Shown one piece after another: positions 8,808 through 11,071 of a stretch of 64,000 bases of DNA (its first letter is position 1; each line of letters opens with the position of its first letter). Source of the stretch: an uncultured Gammaproteobacteria bacterium (GTDB lineage Bacteria > Pseudomonadota > Gammaproteobacteria > GCA-001735895); contig CAMYLU010000005.1 of assembly GCA_947259485.1 (NCBI GenBank), positions 72,714 through 136,713 of the forward strand. Reading direction: 5' to 3'. Both the position numbers and the translations under genes were made by a program. The notes under the pieces were generated by a model that did not search any database, had not been told where the DNA came from, and worked only from the letters and a program-made list of their open reading frames with translations.

Positions 8808-8883
8808 TGGAGCGGGGTACGAGATTCGAACTCGCGACATTCAGCTTGGGAAGCTGACGCTCTACCAACTGAGCTAACCCCGC
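8808..8883 (-). tRNA. tRNA-Gly (anticodon CCC)
   Basis: Reverse complement folds as a canonical 76-nt cloverleaf: GCGGGGT acceptor, GCTC/GAGC D-stem, anticodon loop TTCCCAA, T-arm GCGAG-TTCGAAT-CTCGT, and an encoded CCA. Confidence 0.9.
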
Positions 8884-9100
8884 GGCACGGTCATTGTAAC
8901 GCCAAGGCAGACTCTCGCAAGTTCCCGGCCAGGGTCGTCGATCGGCAGTGCTTCGCGTGCGATGTATTCAGGATGCAACGGTTGCGTTATGTTTCGCAAT
9001 CAGTTGCCTGTTAAAATAGGTGATTCCGAATTATCGGCCCGTGACTTTTTCCGTCCCCGCGAAGTCAAGGCTGAACTCTAACGATAAATGAGAGACCGCA

Positions 9101-10513
9101 ATGTCAGCCGGAAAATTTAAACGCGTTCTGAATGGAAAGGAGGTGCTAGCACTCGCGTTTGGTGCGATGATTGGCTGGGGTTGGGTCGTGTTAACTGGCG
9201 GCTGGATCGAGTCAGCGGGCGCCGCCGGCGCAATGATCGCCTTCCTGATTGGCGGGATCGCGGTAGTCCTGATCGGCCTTACCTATGCCGAGCTAGCCTC
9301 GGCAATGCCCTTGACCGGCGGCGAGCATGTCTACAGCCACAGGGCGCTCGGAATGGGGGGTTCTTTCTTTTGCACCTGGGCCATTATCCTTGGCTATATT
9401 TCCGTGGTGGCATTCGAAGCGGTTGCCCTACCCACAGTCATCGAACACCTCTTTCCTAATTACAAGATTGGCCTGCTATGGAACGTGGCCGGTTGGGATG
9501 TCTATTTTACCTGGGCGCTGGTCGGAGTCGCGGGGGCTATCGCCATGACCTGGATTAACATTCGTGGCATACAGGCGTCAGCCTTTCTGCAAAAAGTGGT
9601 GACCCTGATGATTATGGTTGTCGGCATCATGCTGGTCACAGGATCATTGTTCAATGGCGAAACGAGTAACATGGAGCCGCTTTTCGTCAATGGTGCCAAA
9701 GGCATTCTGACGGTCCTGATCATGACCCCGTTCATGTTTGTCGGCTTCGATGTCATCCCGCAGGCTGCCGAAGAGATCGACCTGCCATACAGGCAAATTG
9801 GTCGGATACTGGTTCTCTCCGTGTTCATGGCCGTCGCCTGGTATGTTCTCATGATCCTGGGGGTATCCCTGTTAATGCCACCTGCCCAAACAGCGTCATC
9901 CAGCCTGGCAACAGCGGATGCGATGACGCTGGCCTTTGGTGGGGGCTGGGCCGGGAAGCTCCTGGTGGTAGCCGGAATCGGTGGCATTCTCACCAGCTGG
10001 AATGCTTTCCTCGTCGGCGGCAGTCGCGCCGTTTATGCAATGGCACACGCCAGGATGCTGCCATCATTTCTGGGTAAGATGCATCCGCAATACAATACCC
10101 CGGTGAACGCCATTCTCCTGATTGGCGCACTATCGATCATTGCCCCTTTGTTTGGCCGAAAAACACTGGTCTGGCTGGTGGATGCAGGCGGTCTCGGTAT
10201 CGTCATTGCCTATGCCACCGTTACCTTGTCATTTCTGGTATTGCGCGTGAAGGAACCGGAAATGCCGCGTCCGTTCAAAGTGGCCAATGGCAAATTGGTC
10301 GGTTATTGCGCACTGATACTATCGCTAGGTATTACCGCTCTCTACCTGCCTGGTAGCCCGTCAGCGCTGATCTGGCCTTACGAGTGGGCCATCGTTCTAA
10401 TATGGACAGTTCTCGGATTGATATTCTATCTTTGGGCCCGGTCAACCCATGGTTCGGAATACAGGCATATCATGCGACAGGAGCTGAAAAGCGGTCACTC
10501 GGATATGCCCTGA
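9101..10513 (+). CDS. APC-family amino acid permease
   Basis: 470 aa with about 12 TM helices and an APC-type glycine-rich N-terminus. Confidence 0.8.
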   Translation: MSAGKFKRVLNGKEVLALAFGAMIGWGWVVLTGGWIESAGAAGAMIAFLIGGIAVVLIGLTYAELASAMPLTGGEHVYSHRALGMGGSFFCTWAIILGYISVVAFEAVALPTVIEHLFPNYKIGLLWNVAGWDVYFTWALVGVAGAIAMTWINIRGIQASAFLQKVVTLMIMVVGIMLVTGSLFNGETSNMEPLFVNGAKGILTVLIMTPFMFVGFDVIPQAAEEIDLPYRQIGRILVLSVFMAVAWYVLMILGVSLLMPPAQTASSSLATADAMTLAFGGGWAGKLLVVAGIGGILTSWNAFLVGGSRAVYAMAHARMLPSFLGKMHPQYNTPVNAILLIGALSIIAPLFGRKTLVWLVDAGGLGIVIAYATVTLSFLVLRVKEPEMPRPFKVANGKLVGYCALILSLGITALYLPGSPSALIWPYEWAIVLIWTVLGLIFYLWARSTHGSEYRHIMRQELKSGHSDMP

Positions 10514-10904
10514 ACCTTGCCGCAGCGTGCATGCCAGGCATCGGTTGACCAGCCAGTCCCCGGGCTGAAGCCGCCCGATGCAGTGAGTAGCACCAAAGAG
10601 ACCGGTTGCCCCTGGGACGAACCTCAGGAATTAAGAATGGACTCGGCCTGCAGGTCGGCATGATTGGACGAACGCACCATCGGGTCGCTGGCGACCTGGT
10701 CGAAGCTAGCCGCCCAAGCCCGGGGAAGGTGACACAGACTCCCCCAATCCCGACATTCCCCTGAAAAATCCAGTCGGGCAACAGGAGATCAAGACGCGGC
10801 AGGACTTCCTTGTGGCGCACCGGGGACTCATCGGGAGATTGAGCACTGCGAAATTGGGGGTCTTACTGGTGGCCCACTGGGGATCCGAAGCGGCGTGTGG
10901 AAAT

Positions 10905-10978
10905 TGGAGCGGTCCGAGGGAATCAAGCCCTCGTCATCTGGTTGGGAACCAGAAGCTTTACCATTGAGCTATCACCGC
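10905..10978 (-). pseudogene. Degenerate tRNA-Gly(CCC)-like sequence (probable tRNA pseudogene)
   Basis: Reverse complement GCGGTGATAGCTCAATGGTAAAGCTTCTGGTTCCCAACCAGATGACGAGGGCTTGATTCCCTCGGACCGCTCCA follows the tRNA-Gly(CCC) architecture. The T-loop is CTTGATT (the conserved TTC is lost). The acceptor stem has two mismatches and the D-stem is weakened. Confidence 0.5.
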
Positions 10979-11031
10979 TGTACGATATTCCCGACCTGTC
11001 GTTTCTCGCTGGGTCGGACCTCTACTGGTGT

Positions 11032-11071
11032 CTTGGGAAGCTGACGCTCTGCCAACCGAGCTAACCCCGCG
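11032..11071 (-). repeat. 40-nt duplicate of the 5' half (positions 1-40) of the tRNA-Gly(CCC) gene at 8808..8883
   Basis: 38 of 40 nt are identical to 8844..8883. Similarity ends exactly after the anticodon loop. Confidence 0.8.

Follow-up and report, generated by a model that had tools for sequence, protein, structure and literature searches.

A tRNA-Gly(CCC) gene cut after its anticodon loop and rebuilt 2.19 kb away: a possible integrase-less relic of integration at the 5′ part of the gene

Which of two copies of a tRNA gene is the original one when only one of them is complete, and what could have cut the other right behind its anticodon loop? This question is raised by a stretch of 64,000 nucleotides (nt) from an uncultured gammaproteobacterium (contig CAMYLU010000005.1; the whole stretch is called the window below), in which an intact tRNA-Gly(CCC) gene and a 40-nt copy of its 5′ part bracket an amino-acid permease gene and a defective tRNA-like sequence. 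An earlier note, made from the letters of the window, had suggested an old integration or a tRNA-centred rearrangement. The comparison with relatives bears out a derived rearrangement, with the fragment at the site that is ancestral according to seven relatives, and does not bear out a simple insertion of 2.15 kb. The explanation that we favour, with moderate confidence, is that an integration which restored its target gene, in the rare 5′-side (reverse) configuration, left this locus at tRNA-Gly(CCC) as a degenerate relic without an integrase.

The sole tRNA gene called by ARAGORN in the window with default settings is tRNA-Gly(ccc) at 8808..8883 on the minus strand. In agreement with the earlier note, it is intact: it scores 72.4 bits with the Rfam tRNA model (gathering score 29), and 76 out of 76 nucleotides are identical to the single tRNA-Gly(CCC) gene of five relatives (L001, L002, L090, L091, L172). 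A part of this gene, 8845-8884 (minus strand), is matched at 38 out of 40 nucleotides by a direct repeat at 11032-11071 (minus strand), with a spacing of 2187 nt; the second copy sits upstream of the intact gene on the same strand. The repeat, already recognized in that note, comprises tRNA positions −1 to 39, that is, it reaches from the 5′ edge of the gene to the 3′ edge of the anticodon loop, ending one base past the loop. A 26-nt probe from the repeat, with up to three mismatches allowed, detects only these two sites in the window, compared to none in 100 shuffles. A second copy of the tRNA 3′ part was not found in the 64 kb; it is the 5′ part, not the 3′ part, that is duplicated.

Relatives of the locus were found with the neighbouring gene ilvE, encoding branched-chain amino acid aminotransferase (11124-12221, minus strand), in species-representative genomes; they are uncultured Gammaproteobacteria with 74–93% amino-acid identity, the nearest being L090, with 96% nucleotide identity on the left flank. 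Seven relatives (L001, L002, L011, L090, L091, L172, L173) carry one intact tRNA-Gly(CCC) gene approximately 55 nt downstream of ilvE, at the place where the window has only the 5′ fragment. The homology on this side comprises ilvE and the original tRNA upstream region (11072-11123, minus strand), both syntenic with all relatives, and it ends at tRNA position 39. Since the gene at the ilvE site is intact in the relatives, the ilvE-linked fragment is the original gene, and the intact copy located 2.19 kb away is the derived one. In the window, the break in the original gene falls directly behind the anticodon loop, between tRNA positions 39 and 40. Two functional tRNA-Gly genes, the arrangement that, according to the earlier note, would favour a local duplication, occur in none of the relatives.

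On the other side, towards the gene of a DUF6627 protein, the homology with L090, L091, L172, and L173 (blastn) ends at 8624-8637, in the intergenic region upstream of that gene. The block between these ends, 8638-11031, replaces a 4.4-kb PotABCD-like operon together with the tRNA 3′ part (L090, L091, L173) or a 71-nt spacer (L172). At the far end of the block, 2.19 kb on, the block's own copy of positions −1 to 39 stands behind a promoter-like sequence and is fused to the tRNA 3′ part. Thus, one intact tRNA gene exists again, and the old 5′ part is stranded beside the old upstream region.

The two repeat copies differ in an informative way. The copy inside the intact gene has T at position 20 of the D-loop, and the truncated original gene has C at this position and a unique A14G substitution. 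C20 is a natural allele, also present in L011 and L173 (T is found in five relatives and C in two), and the difference of the copies at this segregating position suggests that they have different origins. Position 14 is nearly invariant in tRNAs, and A14G in the fragment looks like decay after inactivation.

A second tRNA-Gly(CCC)-like sequence lies 53 nt from the junction with the fragment. ARAGORN does not call it by default and, with the options -ps -rp, reports tRNA-Gly(ccc)* as a “possible pseudogene” at 10905..10978 (minus strand), exactly the 74 nt delimited previously; the Rfam tRNA model assigns 48.5 bits to 10908..10978 (minus strand), above the gathering score. The defects of the acceptor stem and T-loop described in the earlier note are seen here as well: acceptor pairs 6:67 (G.G) and 7:66 (A.G) are broken, as is the D-stem pair 13:22 (C.A), and the T-loop reads CTTGATT instead of TTCGAAT, with two positions damaged. 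Therefore, the sequence lacks the canonical combination of a seven-pair acceptor stem with the conserved T54, T55 (pseudouridine in RNA), and C56. The note had taken it for a decayed second copy of the resident gene, and this part has to be abandoned. Five stem pairs differ from the resident gene in a compensated manner (5:68 in the acceptor stem, 29:41 and 31:39 in the anticodon stem, 50:64 and 52:62 in the T stem), and because both sides of these pairs have changed with the pairing kept, the pseudogene descends from a separate tRNA-Gly(CCC) lineage that was once functional, the damage having come later. Its anticodon, CCC, is that of the adjoining resident gene; for an unrelated tRNA relic, such a match would occur by chance in approximately 1 in 40 cases by our own estimate. 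The spacer between the truncated gene and the pseudogene (10979..11031, minus strand, 53 nt) contains, just 5′ of the pseudogene, the sequence GAATATCGTAC (10979-10991, minus strand), in which 10 out of 11 bases match GAATCTCGTAC from the T-loop and T-stem of the resident gene. This score is reached by 12 out of 2000 shuffles, and the sequence could be a scrap of the old tRNA 3′ half or a chance similarity.

The block 8638-11031 is a mosaic. Segment a (8638..8804), directly 3′ of the intact tRNA gene, consists of 167 nt with a guanine–cytosine (GC) content of 0.47 and is unique to the window, with no match elsewhere in it or in any relative locus compared. Segment c (8885..8916, minus strand) comprises about 32 unique nucleotides upstream of the intact gene; its possible homology to the permease upstream region of L178 is unconvincing beyond about 8908. 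A sigma-70-like promoter candidate for the rebuilt gene, TTGCGA-16 nt-TACAAT, occupies 8920..8893 of the minus strand, in non-ancestral DNA, and stops 9 nt short of the mature tRNA 5′ end; its −10 box belongs to segment c, and its −35 box straddles the junction of segments c and d. The junction of segment c with the tRNA gene reads TACAATGACCGTGCCGCGGGGTTAGCTC, and the junction 25-mer is CAGCTTCCCAAGACACCAGTAGAGG. Segment d (8917..10527, plus strand) is a permease module composed of 182 nt of upstream sequence, the open reading frame (ORF) 9101-10513, and 14 nt of downstream sequence, and segment e (10528..11031) contains 504 orphan nucleotides with the GC content of 0.60.

The ORF of segment d (9101..10513, plus strand) encodes an APC-family amino-acid permease (Pfam AA_permease_2, 1.9e-40), as previously proposed; its best NCBIfam equivalog match, although below the threshold, is the branched-chain amino-acid transporter BcaP, and the gene adjoins ilvE. 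The permease gene has the GC content of 0.55, GC at third codon positions of 0.637 (mean 0.634), and a codon-usage distance of 0.109, below the mean of 0.136. The atypical composition raised as a possibility by the earlier note is thus ruled out, as none of the three values stands out in the window. At the nucleotide level, segment d shares 96.5% identity with L178 and L179, where it lies between a GFA-family gene and a phosphoketolase gene, 92% with L081 and L092, where it follows an antiporter-family gene, and 82% with L177, where it follows a chemoreceptor gene. The native composition, taken together with 96.5% identity to a chromosomal copy at a sister-lineage locus, identifies the module as clade-native, relocated cargo that is not obviously foreign.

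The same five loci provide further observations on this gene. The homology to the permease (window 9071-10527 compared with L081, L092, L177, L178, and L179) begins 21–30 nt before the ATG, or 182 nt before it in L178 and L179, and always ends 8–14 nt past the stop codon, in four different genomic contexts; as judged from these alignments, the gene behaves as a tightly bounded module that relocates within the clade. In L081 (1649-1925 and 3393-3680) and L092 (56-131 and 1800-1875), the permease is flanked by direct repeats formed by the 3′ end of the antiporter-family gene and approximately 75 nt downstream of it; the two copies are 192–280 nt long and only about 77% identical. In L178 (2884-3072), only the downstream copy is kept. 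The L081/L092 locus is a second case in which this permease lies between copies of a part of its target. In the window, the left edge of the permease module may hold a truncated divergent ORF, which has no Pfam match or database record and therefore is not used as evidence.

Segment e, which contains the pseudogene, has no detectable coding remnant. The GC-rich spacer noted earlier between the permease and the pseudogene (10514-10904, GC content about 0.61) yields no Rfam family other than tRNA, as the Rfam search suggested by the earlier note showed, and no Pfam match for the six-frame pieces tested. The 116-amino-acid minus-strand ORF of segment e has no homologue among 1.84 billion representatives, the most protein-like plus-frame peptide has none in the protein database, and only the tRNA-like part has matches (assorted tRNA-Gly genes, about 75%). 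A hidden gene remnant or integrase in this orphan was considered and rejected, given no Pfam match at E<=10 among the six-frame pieces tested and no homologues, and a weak codon-position periodicity of the GC content at 10716-10904 led nowhere.

The place occupied by the block is variable among the relatives. L090 (12482-16470), L091, L173, and L174 contain a four-gene, PotABCD-like polyamine-type ABC operon, and L001 and L002 have at the same place a match to the tRNA-proximal end of this operon in L090. The ATPase of the operon scores 397 bits, above the NCBIfam cut-off of 355.6 for the polyamine potA subfamily, and the permease subunits resemble PotB/PotC. The slot contains unrelated genes in L011 and, in the more distant L176, a DUF7684 gene and no tRNA gene. 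The PotABCD-like operon was not found anywhere in the 64 kb of the window. Hence, the slot carries alternative uptake systems for nitrogen compounds, a PotABCD-like ABC transporter versus an APC permease. The DNA on the 3′ side of the tRNA gene differs in every arrangement, the ilvE-side flank and the tRNA match the seven relatives, and the contents of the slot appear to be exchanged between lineages via homologous recombination of the flanks. Identity to L090 amounts to 93–99% left of the locus, drops to 81–89% across ilvE and its upstream intergenic region (11032-12531), and returns to 94–98% over 12532-14031 and 88–98% beyond. This drop points to a possible recombination tract from a more divergent lineage, ending at or including the tRNA locus.

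We consider site-specific integration at tRNA-Gly(CCC) a plausible origin of this arrangement, as far as can be judged from sequence comparison. The split-and-restore geometry would be the product of site-specific recombination, with the 5′ part of the tRNA gene through the anticodon loop as the attachment (att) site and the element supplying the 5′ half and a promoter. The element would have brought its own cognate tRNA-Gly(CCC), now the pseudogene; later, the recombination module would have been lost and the interior replaced or remodelled, leaving the clade-native permease module as cargo. We favour this explanation because the gene is cut at the edge of the loop and rebuilt from exactly its 5′ part, a promoter-like sequence precedes the rebuilt gene, a cognate relic lies next to the break, and the slot is variable. 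Precedents exist. It is the hallmark of tRNA-targeting integrative elements that they split a tRNA gene and restore it with sequence of their own, and Islander accepts a displaced 5′ fragment that lies upstream of the intact gene and is oriented like it (PMC4383910). Recombination of an element with the 5′-distal part of a tRNA gene is the less common case, for which archaeal examples are cited (PMC6563490). Repeats of about 40 nt are typical of att sites (bioRxiv 10.1101/2020.12.28.424599), with a 44-bp example (PMC9897764), and element-borne cognate tRNAs beside tRNA att sites are known from tRNA-dependent lysogeny (PMC10865867).

Several observations weigh against this explanation. The block is only 2.19 kb long, and no integrase, excisionase, or transposase was found in it or among the 40 ORFs scanned in the 64 kb (the long non-overlapping ones and a few short ones beside the locus). 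Similarly, viral contigs, phage records, and plasmid records provided no second example, free phage attachment site (attP), or related element. The permease module is native in composition, shares 96.5% identity with a sister-lineage locus that is ordinary chromosomal DNA, and starts only about 32 nt from the tRNA gene, a distance that leaves no room on that side for an attP arm of the lambda type. The sequence following the loop at the fragment junction, GACAC, does not mimic the anticodon-stem strand GCTGA, and hence there is no recognisable hybrid core. Relative to the relatives, the change is a replacement rather than a pure insertion: the 167 nt on the 3′ side of the tRNA gene are novel and the ABC operon is gone, requiring at least one further event. 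Finally, the promoter is a consensus match only, with four such sites in the region compared to 2.0 ± 1.4 expected by chance.

Comparison with known systems shows where the locus stands. In a tDNA (tRNA gene) island as defined by Islander (Hudson, Lau and Williams, 2015; PMC4383910), the target tRNA gene is likewise split and regenerated from the insert, the fragment and the gene form bracketing direct repeats of about 40 nt, and the region beside the tRNA gene is strain-variable. The locus has an intact gene and a cognate end fragment on the correct side, in the correct orientation, and on the same replicon, and its length of 2187 nt between repeat starts is just above the lower limit of the range of 2–200 kb. 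The difference lies in the integrase, which Islander requires and which was not detected in the ORFs and six-frame pieces tested from 8885-11031 nor among the 40 window ORFs, confirming the absence already stated in the earlier note; in addition, the cargo is clade-native, and the distal flank differs from the relatives, so that the empty site does not cleanly confirm the ends. Integrative elements at the 5′-distal part of a tRNA gene (archaeal cases are cited in PMC6563490) likewise duplicate the 5′ tRNA part, and their rebuilt gene, separated from its original promoter, needs one supplied by the element; in the locus, a candidate for such a promoter is present. Taking these comparisons into account, we class the locus as a degenerate member of the known 5′-side tDNA islands, not as a new kind. 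Elements of this type that use the 5′-distal part of tRNA genes were reportedly described by Zhao and Williams in 2002 (J Bacteriol 184:859); they are said to encode an integrase and to be much larger than the locus.

In tRNA-dependent lysogeny (Guerrero-Bustamante and Hatfull, 2024; PMC10865867), the host tRNA gene is also left unreconstructed at one junction. However, with a common core of about 10 bp there, neither junction restores an intact host gene, whereas in the locus the 40-nt repeat rebuilds the gene; moreover, the phage tRNA is functional and required, together with a tyrosine integrase, whereas the cognate tRNA in the locus is defective. The rebuilt intact gene sets the locus apart from this system. 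Tycheposons (bioRxiv 10.1101/2020.12.28.424599) share with the locus the nutrient-transporter cargo at a tRNA-linked variable slot and partial tRNAs marking old integrations, but the locus has no recombinase or replication module of the tycheposon type, and its polarity is reversed. One more comparison concerns elements mobilised by others. Cis-mobilisable elements (CIMEs) are recombinase-less remnants flanked by att repeats, like the locus; a partner element that could act in trans was not found.

The best-surviving alternative is the import of a second copy followed by a deletion: the DNA imported into the variable slot would have carried a complete, expressed tRNA-Gly(CCC) gene with a promoter of its own, arriving by recombination of the conserved flanks or with a conventional island having a whole tRNA gene in its att region, and the redundant ilvE-linked gene would then have been cut back by a deletion of its 3′ part together with neighbouring DNA, in which an integrase may have been lost. 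We regard it as possible, though doubtful. The identity between the copies stops at position −1, as expected for two independent genes; the intact gene has a promoter-like sequence in non-ancestral DNA and novel sequences on both flanks (segments a and c); the copies have different natural alleles at position 20; the identity profile with L090 suggests a recombination tract over the locus; and the slot content has clearly been exchanged between lineages. However, the truncation exactly at the edge of the anticodon loop has to be a coincidence (about 5% by our estimate), none of the seven relatives has two copies or a tRNA-Gly(CCC) gene with flanks a or c, and the foreign pseudogene with the cognate anticodon 53 nt from the break is left unexplained. 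In addition, at least as many events are needed as for a gene-restoring integration.

An accident of repair or replication is unlikely in our opinion. In this case, the tRNA gene, being highly transcribed, would have suffered a break or a fork collapse, and its repair by serial template switching or illegitimate joining would have copied pieces e, d, and c from elsewhere and re-entered at the tRNA 5′ end, producing a templated insertion and the 40-nt duplication. It agrees with the mosaic structure of the block, whose parts have different affinities (segment d corresponds to a sister-lineage chromosomal locus with cuts about 182 nt before and 14 nt after the ORF, and c and e are orphans), with the lack of recombinase genes, and with the presence of the same permease in at least four contexts within the clade, the L081/L092 copy lying between 77%-identical direct repeats of the neighbour's 3′ end. 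Nevertheless, both the re-entry at exactly −1 and the break at the exact loop edge would be coincidences, and chance would also have to supply a working promoter. The copies would have started out identical, and the agreement of T20 and C20 with the natural polymorphism would be accidental (about 3% by our estimate). The cognate pseudogene is unexplained in this case, too.

It is also unlikely, we think, that the block is a live, minimal, recombinase-less cassette that recombines at the 5′ half of tRNA-Gly(CCC) and is mobilised in trans like a CIME, having its own promoter and, originally, a back-up tRNA, and that single transporter genes of the clade hop by partial duplication of their targets. 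If so, it would be a gammaproteobacterial cousin, with reverse polarity, of tRNA-dependent integration, and the antiporter 3′-end repeats of L081 and L092 would be a second instance of target-duplicating permease relocation.

An assembly artefact, i.e., a metagenome contig in which co-occurring strains or loci were fused at the shared tRNA sequence, is highly improbable. All relatives and apparently the source as well are metagenome assemblies, and identity to L090 switches abruptly at the locus. However, a false join at a common k-mer would leave the tRNA gene without a seam; it would not leave a 5′ fragment that has two substitutions of its own and continues into unique sequence. Moreover, the longest exact stretch common to both repeat copies (19 nt) is too short for final assembly k-mers, and the partial tRNA must exist somewhere even in a chimera.

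Other origins of the block were tried and rejected. In phage and plasmid collections, the tRNA-like 80 nt are the only part with matches, of about 75% identity; in viral contigs, five DNA pattern scans gave no match to the junctions, the pseudogene, or the 5′ half, and a scan with the permease protein gave only a 51%-identical permease homologue. A known mobile element was therefore rejected as the source, as far as these collections and scans reach. A group-I intron or a split or permuted tRNA finds no support, as no 3′ half comes after the fragment and Rfam finds tRNA only. The fold of the fragment, spacer, and pseudogene taken together is no better than that of shuffles (z = −0.28), and a structured RNA likewise finds no support. 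Lastly, a conventional 3′-side island left of the intact tRNA gene was dismissed, as there is no 3′-end repeat in the window or at the slot boundary of the relatives.

The locus reveals no new mechanism. If the integration described above took place, it would be a well-documented bacterial case of a rare, mirror-image use of a tRNA insertion site, in which not the back of the gene but its front, promoter included, is exchanged for element sequence; the case would be a degraded one, for which seven relatives show the ancestral arrangement. The locus also indicates that a tRNA-linked slot in uncultured, sulfur- and carbon-fixing Gammaproteobacteria from sediments swaps nutrient-uptake cargo, a polyamine-type ABC transporter versus an APC permease. 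Such a locus would be mis-handled both by island-finding programs that depend on an integrase and by annotation that counts partial or pseudo tRNAs as genes.

Some other features of the window and its relatives were seen as well. The source organism is an autotrophic gammaproteobacterium. The window contains a Calvin-cycle cluster (17702-28927) with genes for a VWA-domain protein and a CbbQ-type AAA protein (probable CbbO/CbbQ), the RuBisCO large chain, class II fructose-bisphosphate (FBP) aldolase, transketolase, phosphoribulokinase, FBP phosphatase (FBPase), and a divergent LysR regulator. A gene for a HipA-like toxin kinase (Pfam HipA_C and Couple_hipA) is located at 60508-61755. In L001, and in no other relative, ARAGORN calls a 95-nt tRNA-Lys(ttt) inside the coding region of ilvE (2690-2784); Rfam does not confirm this call, and it can be taken for a false positive with near certainty. 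A 73-nt intergenic sequence (ACAGCTGGATTATAAGGTTTTTG...GAGCGTCCG..ATGGCCG) at 38490-38561 of the window has no Rfam match and is 84% identical to 486-558 of L178, upstream of the permease locus; it could be a repeated regulatory element or one resembling repetitive extragenic palindromic (REP) sequences.

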